Below the pieces are notes generated by a model that saw only the letters and a list, made by a program, of their open reading frames with translations, made no database searches and was not told the DNA's origin. Positions 9,789 to 57,731 of a DNA stretch of 64,000 bases are shown here, in pieces; position 1 is the first letter of the stretch; every line of letters begins with the position of its first letter. Origin of the DNA: Acinetobacter phage vB_AbaM_ME3; the sequence record KU935715.1, one strand, 5' to 3'. The translations under genes were made by a program, and so were the position numbers.

Positions 9789-10232
9789 TCAGGCAATAAT
9801 CCGTTCAATAGTATCTCTTAAGTTTATTTCAACATCAGGATAAAATTTTCTCATTTCTTGTCTTAATTTATATAATCGTCTTTTTGGATTAATACTTAAA
9901 CCATATTTATAATAAATACTATTATTAATTTTTATTTCAAATTCGTATAAAAAGATAGTTTCTAAAGGTCTACGTTGAACTGTAGTTTTATTTAAAAATC
10001 CACTTTGGTTATTTCTAGAGCATGTAGGACAATTACTTCTAGATTGTAAATAGTCATTAGTGCGTGGTGTCCATGTGTTAGAACATTTTTTGCATTCTAA
10101 TTTTATAAATTTAGCATACTCTTGATAACTTCTAGTTAATAAAATGTATAAATCATCTTGGATAACTTTAGAAAGAATTGTAGAATATTTTAATAAATTA
10201 TAAAAATTAGATTTTTGAACTAATGCGTACAT
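9789..10232 (-). CDS. T5orf172/GIY-YIG-like domain protein with Zn ribbon
   Basis: CKKCSNTW...CPTCSRN Cys pairs; YYKYGLSINPKRRLYKL resembles the T5orf172 (MUG113) GIY-YIG-like motif. Confidence 0.45.
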   Translation of the reverse strand: MYALVQKSNFYNLLKYSTILSKVIQDDLYILLTRSYQEYAKFIKLECKKCSNTWTPRTNDYLQSRSNCPTCSRNNQSGFLNKTTVQRRPLETIFLYEFEIKINNSIYYKYGLSINPKRRLYKLRQEMRKFYPDVEINLRDTIERIIA

Positions 10233-10630
10233 GAACTAACTCCCTTAACAAAATCATGAAATAAGGGAAAATAAATATTACCACATGTCTTATGAACTAG
10301 AGCTAATGATATTTTAGTAGTAATTTTAGATAAATCTTGATAGATATATTCATACTCTGAAAAAGTTGTATCAATATAAAGTTTTAAATCCTTTTCTGAT
10401 TTAAAACGTCTTGATTTTTCATTACAAACGCCTGACGTAAGTTTACAATCATTACAGAATTTAGGCTTATTATAAATCAAATTAAACCAATTACTTATAA
10501 CTTCTTTTTGACAAGTATTACAAATTACTAGTATTTTAGATTTGACATTTTTATAAGGTTCTACTTCTCTAATAAATGAAAAACAATTTTCACTTTGAAT
10601 AATCATTTTATATTTTTGAATTTGAAACAA
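10220..10630 (-). CDS. hypothetical Cys-rich (Zn-ribbon) protein
   Basis: CNTCQKE...CNDCK...CNEK...C motifs. Confidence 0.5.
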   Translation of the reverse strand: MFQIQKYKMIIQSENCFSFIREVEPYKNVKSKILVICNTCQKEVISNWFNLIYNKPKFCNDCKLTSGVCNEKSRRFKSEKDLKLYIDTTFSEYEYIYQDLSKITTKISLALVHKTCGNIYFPLFHDFVKGVSSCTH

Positions 10631-11453
10631 ATCTACTCCTCTATATTTCTATAGATGTTGAGACTATATCTTCATCCTATTAAATAGGAGTTTTATGTTT
10701 CCCTTTAATCCGTTCGGAACCACTTGGCGGTAGACCTAAATTTAATTTAGGAATTACTAGTCGTTGAACCTTCCTCTATATTACTAGAGGCTTGGCTGCT
10801 GATTGTCCATTACAAAGAATATATTAATATATTCATCTTCTTTATTTTCAAACATTCACGCTCATCTTTACAGATCACGTTGTAGTTAAAGAAGCTTTAG
10901 GAGTTTCCAGCAATTAATAAAATTTTGTCGACTACATTACTGTAGAAGGTGTCAATCTATTATTTAACACTACTGAAGAAAGCGCTCATATTGACGTGTG
11001 ACACCGTCATAATTGTTAACAAGAGTTTCTTTAATTATCTCTTTTCATTTCCTATCTAAAGTTTGGAAATAGTTCAGACTATCTAATCACCTTCAACAAC
11101 AAATATTTGCTTTGTTAAGGTGTTGGGCGCTCGTGGAGAGGTTATTGTTATCTTACTCACTCTCTAGTCGTTTAACGTTCTTGTCTCTTAATTAAGATAA
11201 GACAAGCTTCGCACAGTGTCGCCTACTAAGCTTCCACTGTTAGCTACAATATATAAATATAATAATGATACAGACTATTGGAATCTAACCAATTCATCCT
11301 AAGTTTACAAAGATGTTTCCCAACATTCTAAGCTCTTGGGGCGTTCACCTTTCACCAAGTCTGCATTACGAATTATCTCGGATTGGTAGGCCTTATGGGA
11401 TTCTAACCCATGATCTCACAAGTTATGAGCTTGGTGCTTTAGAACGCTAAGCT

Positions 11454-17650: not shown

Positions 17651-17851
17651 TTAAAATTCACTGAATGGTTCAGGATCTTCTTCATCTGTTGAAACTTGTT
17701 TAAAGTACTTACCATTGTACCAGCCTTCAACGTCTTTTAACTTATAAAAAGTTTCAAATACTTTTATATCTTTTGCAATAACTTCATATTCAACATTCTC
17801 TTTTATTTGAGAACATTCAAGTGAAACTCCAGCTTTAAGGATTACAATCAT
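17651..17851 (-). CDS. hypothetical protein
   Basis: ORF track; overlaps the next gene by 4 nt. Confidence 0.5.
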   Translation of the reverse strand: MIVILKAGVSLECSQIKENVEYEVIAKDIKVFETFYKLKDVEGWYNGKYFKQVSTDEEDPEPFSEF

Positions 17852-18222
17852 TTTAAATCATCCTGATTCTTTAATAGGTGGCATTTAATTTGAGATAGGC
17901 TTTCTTTAATATCTTCTTGTTCCTCATGAGTAAATTCATTTCTATTCTTAATTAAAGCAGCTAGGATATGACTAATGACAGAAGGTATGATAAAGAAAAT
18001 CCAAAAATGACCACAGACAATAGCTAAAATCTTTCCTGCGATAGTGTGAGGAGAGTAGTCACCATAACCAATAGTAAGAGATGTAACACAAGCCCAATAT
18101 AAAGAGTCTAGATATGAAACACCTTCCAATAAAGAAAACAGTAAAGATGCTATAACTAAACTTAATAGATAAGCAAGAAATACATATCTAATATTATTTG
18201 CAATTAATAGAAAATAAGCCAT
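17848..18222 (-). CDS. minimal 2-TM potassium channel (Kcv/KcsA-like)
   Basis: TM1, then pore helix and selectivity filter YWACVTSLTIGYGDYSP (TxGYGD), then TM2; 124 aa. Confidence 0.75.
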   Translation of the reverse strand: MAYFLLIANNIRYVFLAYLLSLVIASLLFSLLEGVSYLDSLYWACVTSLTIGYGDYSPHTIAGKILAIVCGHFWIFFIIPSVISHILAALIKNRNEFTHEEQEDIKESLSQIKCHLLKNQDDLK

Positions 18223-18362
18223 GAAATTCTCAAATATAAATAATTAAGAAGATATATGTAGTCCCTAAGGCACGACATCCACTTGTTTAAATTAGAGAGA
18301 TCGTCACCTCTCCCAAGCCGCTCTACTACATTGGCGTATACATATATCTTATTAATTATTCA

Positions 18363-18794
18363 CTAAACAATAATATAAACACAGTCTTCATTTACATAAG
18401 GATGTAATAATCTAATTGTACGTTTAACTAATTTAGCATAGTTATCTTTTAACAACCCACCAGCACCAATATCAATAAAGACTCTAGTGATATTTGAAAC
18501 TCCAGGTTTTCCTCTAATAGAAGAGGAATCAGTACAATTAATAGAAAAGAAATATCCACCTGTACTTTTAGTAAACTCTCTAGCAGCTGGAATCTTATTA
18601 GCTACATATAAGTCTGTTGACGGATTAAAAATTTCTTTAACTTCAGTTGTAGTTCCAAAGCCACGAGGAACAGAATGAATTAACACTCGATGCTCTAATG
18701 CTTGATAAACATCTTTTGTATCAATATTATGTTGTAAATTATATTGATGTATTCTTGGAATTTGAATTCCTAGGAATTCTTTTAAGTGGTTCAT
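18363..18794 (-). CDS. hypothetical protein
   Basis: ORF track. Confidence 0.5.
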   Translation of the reverse strand: MNHLKEFLGIQIPRIHQYNLQHNIDTKDVYQALEHRVLIHSVPRGFGTTTEVKEIFNPSTDLYVANKIPAAREFTKSTGGYFFSINCTDSSSIRGKPGVSNITRVFIDIGAGGLLKDNYAKLVKRTIRLLHPYVNEDCVYIIV

Positions 18795-19337: not shown

Positions 19338-19712
19338 TCATGTTTGTAGAGTTTCCTCTAAAACCACTCTAATATATTTTTGTCTATAATGAGATTCTAT
19401 ACGAAATTCTAAAGGAACTGATACTTTAAATCCTTGAGGTATCACAACTGAGTCTTTAACAAAATTTAAGAAATCTACATCACTAGGAAATATTTGTCTA
19501 TATTTTAACTTAAGAGGAACAGATACAATCCAATAATTATGATTAGGATGTAATTTAATTTCATCAATTAGTTTCTGATTAATATAATCCTCTAATTCAT
19601 TCTTAAGCTTATTAAAATATTGTTTTTTATAGTCATCATAGGTTACATAACTAGTGTTTTCTATGACTTTAGATCTTAGTTCTTTAAGAGTTTCTAATGC
19701 AGTTTTCATAGT
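19338..19712 (-). CDS. hypothetical protein, paralog of 34621..34956; start moved to the internal Met
   Basis: Both proteins begin MKTALE(T/V)LKE and share a WIV-(V/L)PLK...P-GF core; the track's 5' extension (to 19847) runs into a GC-rich noncoding-like segment. Confidence 0.5.
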   Translation of the reverse strand, partial: TMKTALETLKELRSKVIENTSYVTYDDYKKQYFNKLKNELEDYINQKLIDEIKLHPNHNYWIVSVPLKLKYRQIFPSDVDFLNFVKDSVVIPQGFKVSVPLEFRIESHYRQKYIRVVLEETLQT

Positions 19713-19824
19713 ATACTCGGAGAATATGGCGGAAAAGGAGGAAGTCGAATCCTCAAGGCACTTATTCAGTACTCGACGCATTTCAAGTGCGCTGCCATCG
19801 CCAGTTGGCTTGCTTTTCCATGTA

Positions 19825-19962
19825 TTATTTTTTCTTTTCGTTATCATTATTACAAGCTGCGTTGCTTAAAGAACTGCACTTACTTTTAGGACCATCGAAA
19901 AACAAAGCATTTGTAATAGTAGGAGTAATAGAAAGAATAATTATAAATATAACATTTTTCAT
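19825..19962 (-). CDS. possible small secreted Cys-containing peptide (45 aa), below the ORF-track size cutoff
   Basis: Hand translation: MKNVIFIIILSITPTITNA (signal-peptide-like) then LFFDGPKSKCSSLSNAACNNDNEKKK; lies in an otherwise empty intergenic gap. Confidence 0.3.
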   Translation of the reverse strand: MKNVIFIIILSITPTITNALFFDGPKSKCSSLSNAACNNDNEKKK

Positions 19963-39347: not shown

Positions 39348-39421
39348 TGGTCCAAAATCTGAGATTCGAACTCAGACGCAGGGTTTTAGGGACCCCTGTG
39401 CTACCATTACACCAATTCTGG
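39348..39421 (-). tRNA. tRNA with encoded 3' CCA; anticodon loop CCCUAAA gives a predicted CUA (amber-reading) anticodon with unusual C33
   Basis: Minus strand: CCAGAAT-TG-GTGT-AATGGTA-GCAC-A-GGGGT-CCCTAAA-ACCCT-GCGT-CTGAG-TTCGAAT-CTCAG-ATTTTGG-A-CCA (74 nt, every stem pairs). Confidence 0.65.
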
Positions 39422-45076: not shown

Positions 45077-46522
45077 TTACTCTTTAACTAATGCATAACG
45101 ATCTACTAATAGCGTTTCTTTCATAATAGCTTCAGGTGAAAACTCATCTAAAGTATTAGAACAAACTGCTTTTAATAGAGAAGGAGAAAAGCTAGATAAT
45201 AAACAAGCACCTGATTCATCATATTTAACAGGAAAGTTATTATTAGAAGGAGTGTTAAGAACCCAAAAGATTAATTTAGGACATTTTAATCCTGCTTCTT
45301 TAAACTTAACTTGAGCATCAACATATGCTGAGCTTTCACGAGAATTAAAATTAAACTGAGTGTCACTGAAGAAAACTAAATATTCAGGTAATTGATCTGA
45401 AGAAATATTATTAGAAACTACTAGATCTAATAGTAGTTTAAAGACACCTTCAACATTTGTACTATAACCAACTTGACTTTGAGCAATAAGATCATAACGC
45501 TCTTTTAAAGTTTTACAATCTTTGAGATCAACAAAAGAAGGATGATCTGCAAATGTAGTTACAAGGTTTTTAAATGGACCTTCAATACGTTCACTGATGT
45601 AAGCACCTAAAGTAATTGCAATATGTTTATATGTTGCATTACCTACAGCAGGAGCTTCCATTGAACCACTTAAATCAACTACAGGAAGAATCGATAAACC
45701 TTCTTTAATTAAATTAGGAAAGCTATTCCACTGAGCTTCTACAACAGGATTAGGTTCGAAATAAGGAGAATAACGAGACCCTAATATTGAATAAACTTCA
45801 GAAATTTCATGAAGAAATAATGTAGACGAATTTAAAGTTGCAGTTCCCTCACTCACTTTATTAATAAAATCATTAAAACGATCTGAGTCTTTAGACAAGA
45901 ATGTATTTTTATAACGATTAAAAGCTTTAGAAGGAACTGTACTATAATCTATTTCAGCGATACGATGCTCACACAATAAACGTTCAGTAACTTTAGCTCG
46001 TAAAGGGACAATTAACTGTCTTAATTCTTTAGGAGTGACCTTAAGATAAGAACGTAACATAGATGCAACATTGCCTTTCAAAGGTAACCACTTTGCAACT
46101 AATATCTGAGTTTCAGGATTTTTCAAATGTTCAGCTAATAGTCGAATAATCTTTTTCTTAATACGAAGATCAACATCACATTCTACTAAATTAAATAAAT
46201 CAGGATAATACCCTAACTCTACAATTTTAGATAAAAGATTAGTTTTTAAAAATACATCAATATCTATATGAGCTAAATGAATCATACAGAGATTAAATGA
46301 ATTACGAATACCTTTACCTTGTCTAATATCACGAGAATTCAAAAGATTACGAATTGCTAAATCTTTGTCTTCTAGATAAGCTTTTCGAAAATCTAAAATA
46401 GCTTCTTGAGAATAGTTAGGATCACCTAATTTAACAAAGAAATCTAAATTATGAGAAGCAGTACTAGAATAAGCTACTGCCCCATTAGTGGTTTGTGTTT
46501 TTAAAGCTGTTGCTGCAAACAT
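45077..46522 (-). CDS. vWA-domain protein, possibly a Ro60/TROVE-like RNA-binding protein
   Basis: C-terminal-half MIDAS-like motif VVDLSGSMEAP; 481 aa with a long N-terminal domain, matching the Ro60 TROVE+vWA layout. Confidence 0.4.
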   Translation of the reverse strand: MFAATALKTQTTNGAVAYSSTASHNLDFFVKLGDPNYSQEAILDFRKAYLEDKDLAIRNLLNSRDIRQGKGIRNSFNLCMIHLAHIDIDVFLKTNLLSKIVELGYYPDLFNLVECDVDLRIKKKIIRLLAEHLKNPETQILVAKWLPLKGNVASMLRSYLKVTPKELRQLIVPLRAKVTERLLCEHRIAEIDYSTVPSKAFNRYKNTFLSKDSDRFNDFINKVSEGTATLNSSTLFLHEISEVYSILGSRYSPYFEPNPVVEAQWNSFPNLIKEGLSILPVVDLSGSMEAPAVGNATYKHIAITLGAYISERIEGPFKNLVTTFADHPSFVDLKDCKTLKERYDLIAQSQVGYSTNVEGVFKLLLDLVVSNNISSDQLPEYLVFFSDTQFNFNSRESSAYVDAQVKFKEAGLKCPKLIFWVLNTPSNNNFPVKYDESGACLLSSFSPSLLKAVCSNTLDEFSPEAIMKETLLVDRYALVKE

Positions 46523-55399: not shown

Positions 55400-56845
55400 T
55401 TATGTTCTTTGTTGAAAACCAAAACCAGTATTTACTAATTCTGTGCTTTCATTTTCACGTCTACCTGCTAATAAAGCAAATAGATTAGCTAAAGTAATAC
55501 GATCTGGAAGACTTTCTTCTAAGTCTAAACGATCACAACGATTTAGTACTTTAACTGCTTGTTCTTTATGCAATGCATCTACATGAATAGCTTTATAGCA
55601 ACGGCCTTCACGTAATAGAGCTTCATCAACATCTGCTAAATTATTTAAGTTAGAAGTAAAGATAACTTTCTTTTCTTTCTTAGCTGTTAATCCATCAGTG
55701 ATGTTAAGAAGTTTTTTCATCACTTCATTACCATCTTTCTGACGACTATTAATATAAGTATCAGCATCTTCAATAATTAAGAATCGTTCATCACTATCAT
55801 AGAAATGAGAGAATAACGAATCCATATTAGCAATATCTTTATTGTATGTGATTAAACAAGATTCATTAGCATAATGTAAAATTTGCTTTAATAAACTTGT
55901 TTTACCAGTACCTGGAGCTCCATACAATAATAACACAGCTGAATCAGATTCTAAATAGCCATTAATAAAATCTTGAAGATTAATATCATTTAAGAAAGGA
56001 TAAGCTTCTTCAATAAAAGTCTTATTACGAGGAATTGGAATAGTTTTAATATTCAAATCACCTGACTGTGTAATACGATCAACCCATTGAACTTCAACTG
56101 TCTTAGGTTTTAATTCTAATAAAGGGTGAAGTTCTTCAGCTAATGTAGTAGGCATGATTGCATTATTAATAAAGTAATCAGCAGGAACCTTATGAGTATG
56201 TTCAATAGATATAAAACCACCATCCATTAAAATCTCATAATGCTTTTGAAGCTTTTCACCATAATGAGTAAATACTGTTAAAGCTTTTGATTTAGCAAAT
56301 TCTAAAATAGCTTCAAATGATGCTTTTGTAATTTCAGTATATGTATAAGTAGATAAAGGAATTCCTTTATCTAAAGAATTTTGTTGAATATTAACTAGGT
56401 ACTGCATACCGAATGAAGCAGTAACAATACTAGGACTTAAATTATTTTGAGAAGTCATTGGAGGGCTCATAGGAATATTATATACAGGTACTTTAGTATA
56501 AGCTGGATTTACATCTGGTGAATGATAATAGTTAGGACCACTTACTGCGTAGACATGCTTGCCTGTATAAGATACTTGAAGATCATATGAATCTCTGGGG
56601 TTAGCATTGTACTGTGGACCAACCCCTGTAAGAGTATTATAAATAGACTTATTAAAACTTGAAGCAGTAATTTGTCTTAAAAAAGTTCTATAATACATAG
56701 ATACGTAACTAATACGATCATATGAATTTAACTCTCCAAACTCATTATTAACAGTTGGAGAAACACCTTCAACAATTTTAAAAGCGTTTCTAAATATAGA
56801 CATTATTTGAAATGGTCTATGTCTTCGAAGAGTTACTCTTGCCAT
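55400..56845 (-). CDS. classic AAA-family ATPase with a ~300-aa N-terminal domain of unknown function (BCS1-like layout)
   Basis: Walker A LLYGAPGTGKTS, Walker B FLIIEDAD, SRH FTSNLNNLADVDEALLREGRCYKAIHV. Confidence 0.75.
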   Translation of the reverse strand: MARVTLRRHRPFQIMSIFRNAFKIVEGVSPTVNNEFGELNSYDRISYVSMYYRTFLRQITASSFNKSIYNTLTGVGPQYNANPRDSYDLQVSYTGKHVYAVSGPNYYHSPDVNPAYTKVPVYNIPMSPPMTSQNNLSPSIVTASFGMQYLVNIQQNSLDKGIPLSTYTYTEITKASFEAILEFAKSKALTVFTHYGEKLQKHYEILMDGGFISIEHTHKVPADYFINNAIMPTTLAEELHPLLELKPKTVEVQWVDRITQSGDLNIKTIPIPRNKTFIEEAYPFLNDINLQDFINGYLESDSAVLLLYGAPGTGKTSLLKQILHYANESCLITYNKDIANMDSLFSHFYDSDERFLIIEDADTYINSRQKDGNEVMKKLLNITDGLTAKKEKKVIFTSNLNNLADVDEALLREGRCYKAIHVDALHKEQAVKVLNRCDRLDLEESLPDRITLANLFALLAGRRENESTELVNTGFGFQQRT

Positions 56846-56851
56846 ATTATA

Positions 56852-57040
56852 CTATTCACTTTTAAATTGCTTAATCATGTATGTGTTATGTTCATTCAAG
56901 AAATCATTCATAATTTGTAGTGTTTCTACATCTTGAGTTAACTTTTGATTTTCTTTAGTTAACTCGTCACATTTTTGATTAAGAACATAAATCGCTGCTA
57001 ATAATAAAAGAATAACAGAGATAACAAGACTAACCAGCAT
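56852..57040 (-). CDS. single-pass membrane peptide with a coiled-coil tail
   Basis: MLVSLVISVILLLLAAIYVL TM. Confidence 0.5.
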   Translation of the reverse strand: MLVSLVISVILLLLAAIYVLNQKCDELTKENQKLTQDVETLQIMNDFLNEHNTYMIKQFKSE

Positions 57041-57041
57041 A

Positions 57042-57731
57042 TTAATTCTCTTCTACAGAAGGCGCTACTGTAGCGCCTTTAAGAGCAGCTAAACGTTCTT
57101 GAGCTGATTTTTGAGTAGTATTGTATTTCTTAACTACTTCTTGACCAACTGGTTTAGTCTTCTCTTTTACACGTTTAATACCCTTATAACGAGAAGACAT
57201 TTCATCAGCATCGCGACGAACTTGTTCAATTTGGGCACGTAATCCATTAGGAATACTATCAGAGTGAAGTTCAATTAATGCTTTAGCAGCATCATAACGT
57301 ACTTCAGCTAATGTAAGCGTTTGCTGTGCTTGAACAATGTCTTCATCAATTGTTTTAAGCTCTTCTTCTAGATCTTTAGAATGTTCTACAAAAAGATCTA
57401 AAGTAGATTGTAATACTTCTAGTTCTCTTTCAGCAGCATCTAATTCACTTGCAATTATTTCTACATCTGAAGTATTACCTTCAGCATCAGCTTGTAATAA
57501 AGCTGAATTTAAAGCTTCAATTTGTTTTTGAGCTTCTACTACTTTACCTTCATATAAAGCCGCTTTACCTTCTGTAGTTTCAAAAGTTTTAACTACAGCA
57601 CAACGAGCTTCATTATATTGCTTTAAAATACGATGACTACGATTTTTAATTGAATCTAATTCATCTAATGTACGATCTAATTTAGATCCAAAAATTAAGA
57701 AGAATTTTTTGAGTAACTTAAAAAAGTTCAT
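57042..57731 (-). CDS. PspA/IM30/Vipp1-like (ESCRT-III superfamily) coiled-coil protein
   Basis: 229 aa; N-terminal amphipathic MNFFKLLKKFFLIFGSKL then long heptad coiled coils, matching PspA size and pattern. Confidence 0.45.
   Translation of the reverse strand: MNFFKLLKKFFLIFGSKLDRTLDELDSIKNRSHRILKQYNEARCAVVKTFETTEGKAALYEGKVVEAQKQIEALNSALLQADAEGNTSDVEIIASELDAAERELEVLQSTLDLFVEHSKDLEEELKTIDEDIVQAQQTLTLAEVRYDAAKALIELHSDSIPNGLRAQIEQVRRDADEMSSRYKGIKRVKEKTKPVGQEVVKKYNTTQKSAQERLAALKGATVAPSVEEN

Follow-up and report, generated by a model that had tools for sequence, protein, structure and literature searches.

A predicted two-helix potassium channel gene of Acinetobacter phage vB_AbaM_ME3 and the conserved hairpin element that precedes it

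The channel gene and its product

A stretch of 64,000 nucleotides (nt) of the genome of Acinetobacter phage vB_AbaM_ME3 (record KU935715.1; hereafter the window) carries, at about gp312, an open reading frame (ORF) of 124 amino acids (aa) whose product is very probably a subunit of a K+-selective channel with two transmembrane helices and a pore loop (2TM/P), a degree of confidence that attaches to the molecular identity of the protein and not to its role. The gene is preceded by a conserved, rod-like hairpin element and followed by a small ORF (Table 1). The channel ORF begins with ATG, and its translation is the same as that of the original prediction for this locus, including YWACVTSLTIGYGDYSP. 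An exact-sequence look-up identifies the product as AND75308.1 / YP_009595979.1 of ME3, a jumbo myovirus of 234,900 bp.

The assignment to the K+ channels draws on several collections. The Pfam family Ion_trans_2 (PF07885) matches residues 20-79 at E 1.8e-14 (53.8 bits; gathering score 22.5), and PHROG 14690, a profile of 122 positions, matches residues 1-121 (E 2.3e-57). A phmmer search of the PDB found 217 distinct sequences of K+ channels at E<=0.01, led by those of TOK1, NaK2K, the MthK pore, KvLm, K2P and Kv pores. Judged from these comparisons, the likeness to K+ channels is far above chance. A scan against NCBIfam gave nothing near its cut-offs.

Not all of the names under which the protein is filed are apt. 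In UniProt it is an "Ion transport integral membrane protein", and in RefSeq and PHROGs a "cAMP-dependent Kef-type K+ transporter", which is a misnomer because the protein consists of the pore domain alone and has neither a CPA2 nor a cyclic-nucleotide-binding domain. A Kef-type (CPA2) transporter identity was rejected, as Pfam gives only Ion_trans_2 and a sub-threshold Ion_trans match in a protein of 124 aa; the name has been carried into many phage RefSeq records. A two-pore-domain (K2P) identity was also rejected, each chain having a single filter motif and a single Ion_trans_2 stretch. The name 'Two pore domain potassium channel' given to Aeromonas phage homologues is wrong as well, with one pore domain in each of them.

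With its GenBank and RefSeq annotation, a PHROG family of its own and a listing in the survey of Greiner et al. (2018, Viruses 10:456, PMC6163359), the gene was already known as a prediction. In that survey the ME3 accession stands as a phage K+ channel gene ("124 aa, 2 TMs") together with those of Pseudomonas phage ventosus, Streptomyces phage BillNye, mycobacteriophages Myrna and Phabba, Lactobacillus phage PLE and nine vibriophages, and the ME3 channel is given as 41% identical to a Rheinheimera protein (PMC6163359). The existence of the gene adds nothing beyond the 2018 survey. The question that it raises is for what reason a tailed phage should have a K+ channel, and functional experiments are feasible because the ME3 host (A. 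baumannii DSM 30007) is culturable.

Predicted structure of the subunit

Kyte-Doolittle hydropathy, computed with a 19-residue window, has maxima of 2.57 at residues 14-32 and 2.37 at residues 65-83, with the filter in a less hydrophobic stretch between the two and a strongly hydrophilic stretch in the final 30 residues. An AlphaFold2 model of the single chain, built on a 75-sequence alignment and with a mean predicted local distance difference test score of 90.1, has helices at residues 2-9, 11-33, 37-48, 61-95 and 99-123 and a loop at residues 49-60. The second transmembrane helix (TM2), which had been set beforehand as a test of the original prediction, is thus seen both as the second hydropathy peak and as model helix 61-95. 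The filter does not lie in a soluble region: it sits in the loop between the pore helix and TM2, as in solved channels. The distribution of charge, with basic R12, K92 and R94 at the cytoplasmic ends of the transmembrane helices and acidic E33, D39 and D55 on the outer side, fits the usual topology with both termini inside.

A Foldseek search of the model against the PDB returned, among the 50 matches listed, cation-channel pores alone, nearly all of them K+ channels or NaK derivatives. The model superposes on closed MthK with a root-mean-square deviation of 1.1 Å over 80 residues, on closed NaK with 1.4 Å over 80 residues, and on the KvLm pore module 4h33 with 1.8 Å over 90 residues and a target-normalised TM-score of 0.83. 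Superpositions on full-length KcsA and on the NaK-NavSulP coiled-coil chimera, both of which have a C-terminal helix after TM2 as the ME3 channel does, also span the C-terminal helix, and the match to the chimera reaches residue 117. Hydrophobic residues in this predicted helix have a heptad-like spacing (I106, L110, I113, L117), which, together with the chimera match, is at most suggestive of a homotetramer. Ion_trans_2, the PDB sequence matches, the AlphaFold2 model and Foldseek agree on a phage K+ channel with a canonical filter, as originally proposed. The reading as a minimal K+ channel is supported at the level of sequence and fold; conductance and a tetrameric state are predicted.

The fold is the same as that of the MthK, NaK/NaK2K, KvLm (4h33) and KcsA pores, at 28-34% identity and with the pore helix and the filter in the same position. 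In contrast to these solved prokaryotic channels, the ME3 protein has no RCK or voltage-sensor domain, carries a Trp in place of the glycine hinge, has an invariant His72 and Pro80, and ends in an FTxxEQ tail without counterpart. The glycine hinge is presumably G87 (NaK numbering), the residue that W74 faces in the ungapped alignment with NaK2K. The invariant Pro, six residues after W74, would by its numbering lie near the PVP kink of Kv channels.

The original prediction had also likened the protein to both KcsA and the algal-virus channel Kcv. The layout of the KcsA, MthK and NaK pores is indeed found in it, whereas the likeness to Kcv holds for the overall layout only. Kcv and Kesv are, like the ME3 channel, virus-encoded 2TM/P proteins, and their fold similarity to the model is weak (BFVD, E 6e-3 to 5e-2). 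Chlorovirus Kcv proteins typically have fewer than 100 aa and are not known to have a cytoplasmic tail. A range of 79-156 aa has been given for Kcv-type proteins (PMC6163359), and the 124-aa ME3 protein differs from them by some 30 predicted cytoplasmic residues after TM2, including the 25-residue helix 99-123. Kcv-type channels belong to viruses of eukaryotic algae, in which their proposed location is the internal membrane of the virion, and there is no specific sequence relationship between them and the ME3 channel, which groups with bacterial and phage proteins.

A broad family of short channels

A protein-cluster search with the channel gave 113 homologues at E<1e-5. The closest (57-95% identity) are encoded on metagenomic contigs of up to 201 kb that resemble ME3 relatives, and the next are 127-aa chromosomal proteins of Rheinheimera and other Proteobacteria (about 41-43%). 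Small bacterial 'potassium channel family proteins' of ~127 aa (for example ALZ75942.1 of Rheinheimera sp. F8, and its relatives; P0072, P0077) belong to the same family, align over the full length at 41-43% identity, and share with the ME3 protein the 2TM/P layout, the TIGYGD filter, the TM2 sequence GHFWIF...P and the C-terminal helix with F-T/S-x-x-E-Q. Unlike the phage gene of ME3, the Rheinheimera gene is a cellular, chromosomal one: the homologue of about 41% identity is flanked by the genes for a PfkB kinase and for PhoD, an ordinary chromosomal and not a prophage context. The family has apparently not been characterised experimentally.

A profile search of 1.84 billion cluster representatives gave 2,605 matches at E<=1e-10, and most of the best 150 of these are single-pore proteins of 115-190 aa aligned along the whole profile. 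None of the 117 retrieved channel sequences, a number that includes the query, lacks the filter motif T[IV]GYGD. Across the 75-sequence alignment Y18, E33, T47, L49, T50, G52, Y53, G54, D55, H72, P80, E101 and Q102 are invariant, and W43, W74 and F97 are conserved at 90% or more. F-[TS]-x-x-E-Q, the motif of the C-tail, is retained by 68 of the 84 short representatives whose filter is canonical. The ME3 channel is on this sequence evidence a member of a broad, mostly bacterial family of ~120-aa channels made of a 2TM pore and a conserved C-terminal helix, set apart from textbook pores by two traits, the Trp at the hinge position and the invariant Pro in TM2. As a large, uncharacterised family that forms a natural 'pore module plus tail', it could interest channel biophysicists.

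Among phages the family is rare, as had been supposed: a tblastn search found relatives in 33 of 50,697 phage records. Identities to the ME3 channel are 54% for ventosus, 47% for phiPsa397, phiPsa347 and phiK7A1, 43% for the Aeromonas LAh phages, 42-44% for the Streptomyces phages, and 37-38% for Myrna and Phabba. The members of PHROG 14690 are, like the ME3 protein, single-pore homologues annotated as ion transport proteins or K+ transporters (117-124 aa, 37-54% identity); they comprise ventosus ATW58311.1, the phiPsa397/347/K7A1 proteins, those of Aeromonas phages LAh_6/8/9 and 4_4572, those of Streptomyces phages BillNye, Wakanda, Muntaha and Circinus, and those of Mycobacterium phages Myrna and Phabba. 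These phages differ from ME3 in lineage and host and have no gene neighbourhood in common with it. A megablast search with the surrounding 4 kb gave no match in the phage collection, in which ME3 itself is apparently not included.

An orthologue of the channel is present in four diverged ME3-like contigs (L008, L009/L010, L011 and L001), and in three of the four the order of the gp313 homologue, the channel, the small ORF and, later, PhoH is as in ME3. The ratio of nonsynonymous to synonymous substitution (dN/dS, Nei-Gojobori) among these orthologues is 0.09-0.32, with synonymous sites near saturation (proportion of synonymous differences, pS, about 0.6). Such ratios indicate purifying selection on the channel gene, which is therefore not a decaying passenger.

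The upstream hairpin

The hairpin begins at the stop codon of gp313 and ends ~10 nt before the ATG of the channel gene, so that it nearly fills the 140-nt spacer between the two. It is predicted to fold into a 23-bp AT-rich outer stem and a GC-richer core, with a minimum free energy of -40.7 kcal/mol and a z-score of -5.3. The conserved strands of the core are GCCAAUGUAGUAGAGCGGCU and GUGGAUGUCGUGCCUUAGGGAC. Between ME3 and L009 the hairpin shares 116 of 133 positions, whereas pS between their channel genes is 0.65; by this comparison the hairpin is far more conserved than the adjoining coding sequence.

The pairing itself is also conserved. In a 10-sequence alignment 97% of cells are paired, against 31-42% when the partners are slid, and double compensatory changes are found in 7 of 20 outer-stem pairs and in one inner pair; the covariation statistics are thin because they draw on about three independent lineages only. 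Several G·U pairs favour the transcribed (gene-sense) strand. The core strands recur elsewhere with different but complementary outer stems and with different apical hairpins.

The hairpin is not part of the channel gene and is not strictly linked to it. In L001 it immediately precedes a tRNA-Tyr gene, at a distance of 6 kb from the channel gene. It is also present in at least 14 IMG/VR contigs of TRS1-like Acinetobacter baumannii prophages, where it begins within a few nt of the 3′ end of a tRNA-Arg gene; phage TRS1 itself has the same outer stem and a different, shorter core.

Searches of known elements were negative. Rfam gave no match to the hairpin in either search mode, even at E<=1, and blastn gave none against phages and plasmids. 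A 16-mer scan of GTDB genomes (596 Gb) found 120 loci against ~280 expected by chance, and the second half of the hairpin at none of them. A single metagenome match (L154) was set aside as chance-like, and readings of the hairpin as a tRNA-like structure, a known ribozyme or a mimic of CRISPR repeats, judged by eye, were not supported. The hairpin may represent a structured RNA, a site of processing by RNase III or a mobile insertion borne on a hairpin, and it is probably the less expected object of the locus.

Gene neighbourhood

Throughout the window transcription is from the minus strand. Small ORFs, tRNAs and genes related to replication or nucleotides are densely packed in it, the last including those for a Pif1/Dda-like helicase, for PhoH, for phosphoesterases and for ThiF-like, AAA and DUF2828 proteins. 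The features of the channel locus and the others located in this analysis are listed in Table 1.

Table 1. Coordinates of the features discussed (positions refer to the window unless a contig is named)
Feature	Position	Strand	Evidence
Conserved rod-like hairpin, ~130 nt	18232..18365	minus	fold z-score, covariation
Coding sequence, predicted 124-aa K+ channel subunit	17848..18222	minus	ORF list, exact-sequence look-up, PF07885, PHROG 14690
TM1 (outer helix), residues 11-33, ends at invariant E33	18124..18192	minus	hydropathy, model, family alignment
Pore helix, residues 37-48 (YLDSLYWACVTS)	18079..18114	minus	model; aligned to NaK2K and TOK1 pore helices
Selectivity filter T50-I-G-Y-G-D55	18058..18075	minus	sequence, family alignment
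TM2 (inner helix), residues 61-95, with the family-specific G71-H72-F73-W74 and P80	17938..18042	minus	hydropathy, model, alignment
F97-T-H-x-E101-Q102 motif, begins two residues before the C-terminal helix	17917-17934	minus	alignment
Predicted cytoplasmic C-terminal helix, residues 99-123	17854..17928	minus	model
Downstream 66-aa acidic-tailed ORF	17651..17851	minus	ATG overlaps channel stop codon (ATGA)
Hairpin copies	L001:14182-14312, L008:5858-5991, L009:5856-5988, L011:1190-1317, L012:4193-4321
Channel, DUF1190 and glutathionylspermidine-synthase-like genes, Aeromonas phage LAh_8	L004:4977-7110
Group I intron, full-length	10639-10975	minus	Rfam RF00028, 81 bits, E 5e-19
Two Cys-rich ORFs just downstream of the intron	10220-10630, 9789-10232
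tRNA with amber-suppressor-type anticodon CUA	39348-39421	minus	ARAGORN 'Pyl'; Rfam tRNA 54.7 bits
UUA-anticodon (ochre-type) tRNAs in relatives	L001:12851-12931, L008:4050-4130
tRNA-Ser(UGA)	19727-19819	minus	ARAGORN
169-aa ORF	19338-19847		PHROG match
DUF2828+DUF7788 (PHROG 'RNA-binding protein'), ThiF/E1-like and PcfJ-like proteins	45077-46522, 7964-9046, 6090-7739	minus
Hen1 and Pnkp-type RNA repair pair	L001:1-2880

Through the overlap of its start codon with the stop codon of the channel gene, the 66-aa ORF is probably co-translated with the channel. It is kept in L008, L009 and L011 and is found neither in L001 nor in ventosus, and it has no match in Pfam, PHROG or PADLOC. The immediate neighbours of the channel have no informative family match, and PADLOC defence-system models match neither the channel nor its three neighbours. 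No lysis genes (holin, endolysin) or structural genes were found among the nearby ORFs scanned against PHROGs, Pfam and PADLOC. With such neighbours the neighbourhood does not reveal the role of the channel, and it gives no support to the roles in depolarisation, lysis timing or superinfection exclusion that had been suggested for it. A scan for sigma-70 promoters and terminators around the gene did no better than on shuffled sequence.

The neighbours of the channel in phage ventosus and in Aeromonas phage LAh_8 are unrelated to those in ME3. The LAh_8 channel gene shares 4 nt with a DUF1190 gene, behind which come glutathionylspermidine-synthase-like genes; these may form with the LAh channel a functional module that is not present in ME3.

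Possible roles of the channel during infection

In an energised cell, K+ enters through a strictly selective K+ pore as long as the membrane potential lies on the negative side of the K+ equilibrium potential, and such pores can replace K+ uptake systems, as in LB2003 complementation assays. The role favoured over the alternatives for the ME3 channel, by inference and as a possible rather than a probable one, is K+ re-uptake and clamping of the membrane potential during infection. The channel would be made within the infected cell alongside the products of the small genes that surround it in a block on the same strand. From what is established for K+ channels in general, four subunits would come together in the inner membrane of the host, their N- and C-termini both cytoplasmic. 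Their TIGYGD loops would form the K+ filter, their C-terminal helices would bundle below the gate, and gating would make use of the kink at invariant Pro80 instead of the usual glycine hinge, here Trp74. Through the added conductance, K+ lost in association with injection could re-enter down the membrane potential, which would be held near the K+ equilibrium potential, and the K+ content and potential so kept might favour phage translation and replication.

A role of the channel as a depolarising device, which by collapsing or shifting the membrane potential would block DNA entry by superinfecting phages or time holin triggering and lysis, is unlikely. The membrane potential affects both the entry of phage DNA and the triggering of holins, and it is established biophysics that a K+ conductance pulls the potential to the K+ equilibrium potential and so depolarises at high external K+. 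A K+ conductance in the DNA entry of T4 and T5 has also been discussed (Greiner et al., PMC6163359). At the typical low external K+, however, the equilibrium potential is strongly negative, so that a K+-selective pore clamps the potential and does not collapse it, and a strictly conserved selective filter would be needless in a simple membrane-damaging protein. The scans of neighbouring ORFs against PHROGs, Pfam and PADLOC described above, which found no holin or endolysin, speak against this role as well, and the published ME3 lysozyme, ME3_8, lies far from the channel gene.

It is improbable that the gene is a passenger, captured from bacteria and without a role in infection, or already decaying. 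Its occurrence among phages is sporadic, cellular homologues of equal length exist, and Greiner et al. (PMC6163359) considered that sporadic phage channels may be non-essential. The gene is nonetheless retained in synteny in at least four diverged ME3-like contigs at a dN/dS of 0.09-0.21 with synonymous sites near saturation, all hallmarks of a channel are intact, and the relatives nearest to it, at 54-95% identity, are carried by phage or phage-like contigs, as against 41-43% for the bacterial ones.

Slightly more improbable still is a pore protein that is not selective for K+, either as a cation leak of the NaK kind or as a binder that poisons K+ channels or transporters of the host without conducting. 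NaK derivatives are among the best PDB sequence matches, and neither the unusual Trp at the hinge position nor the invariance of His72 in TM2 is seen in textbook channels, but the filter is the K+-selective TIGYGD and not the TVGDGN of NaK, and the top-scoring NaK entries are engineered, K+-selective NaK2K mutants. The same features occur across the family, chromosomal bacterial members included, and are thus not a phage-specific adaptation to poisoning. A virion-carried channel that is inserted at infection, depolarises the host and aids DNA ejection, as proposed for PBCV-1, is scarcely credible in spite of the 2TM/P layout shared with Kcv and of BFVD fold matches that include EsV-1 Kesv (E 6e-3) and a Tetraselmis virus channel, for tailed myoviruses such as ME3 are not known to have an internal lipid membrane that could hold a membrane tetramer, the gene is surrounded by tRNA, PhoH, helicase and small non-structural genes and not by structural ones, and the protein is much nearer to bacterial and phage channels than to Kcv.

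Several points weigh against K+ re-uptake and potential clamping by a working channel. The gene has no conserved partner gene or informative neighbour pointing to a role, and its sporadic distribution among phage records suggests an accessory rather than an essential function. With a Trp at the hinge position the channel could be mainly closed or require a stimulus. The model is that of a monomer, and tetramer formation, selectivity and gating are inferred. A functional study of any phage K+ channel was not found in the searchable literature, a 2025 review of viral K+ channels included.

Two wider readings, that phages have caught a channel of an uncharacterised gating class, marked by the invariant His in TM2, the Trp at the glycine hinge, the Pro kink and the FTxxEQ helix, and that the hairpin is a new class of structured RNA or a hairpin-borne mobile element, are doubtful. 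If the readings were true, several unrelated phage lineages would have captured the channel as a takeover tool over the K+ content and membrane potential of the host, where it may, for example, help to resist membrane-depolarising defence effectors, and the hairpin would have been exchanged between Acinetobacter jumbo phages and temperate prophages, often beside tRNA genes.

Other features of the window

A full-length group I intron lies elsewhere in the window, with a tRNA-Met and a 99-nt 'tRNA-Leu' call ~300 nt upstream of it; the two Cys-rich ORFs that follow it could be an intron-associated endonuclease. A tRNA with an amber-suppressor-type anticodon is also present, and ochre-type tRNAs are found in relatives. 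A check prompted by the CUA anticodon gave no sign of genome-wide recoding of TAG in the window: the standard code gives ~80% coding, and read-through of TAG merges one ORF pair only (55403-57166).

The G+C content of the window is 28-31% throughout, whereas 40% overall is given in the genome announcement of ME3 (PMC5000817), so that either the published figure is wrong or the remaining genome is very different. The tRNA-Ser is predicted in the 5′ part of the 169-aa ORF, whose PHROG match begins at residue 47 only; this ORF has therefore probably been called too long at its 5′ end, with the tRNA probably situated before the true start of the gene. A protein with DUF2828 and DUF7788, a ThiF/E1-like protein and a PcfJ-like protein are encoded elsewhere in the window, and the related 198-kb contig L001 carries a Hen1 and Pnkp-type RNA repair pair near its tRNA cluster.

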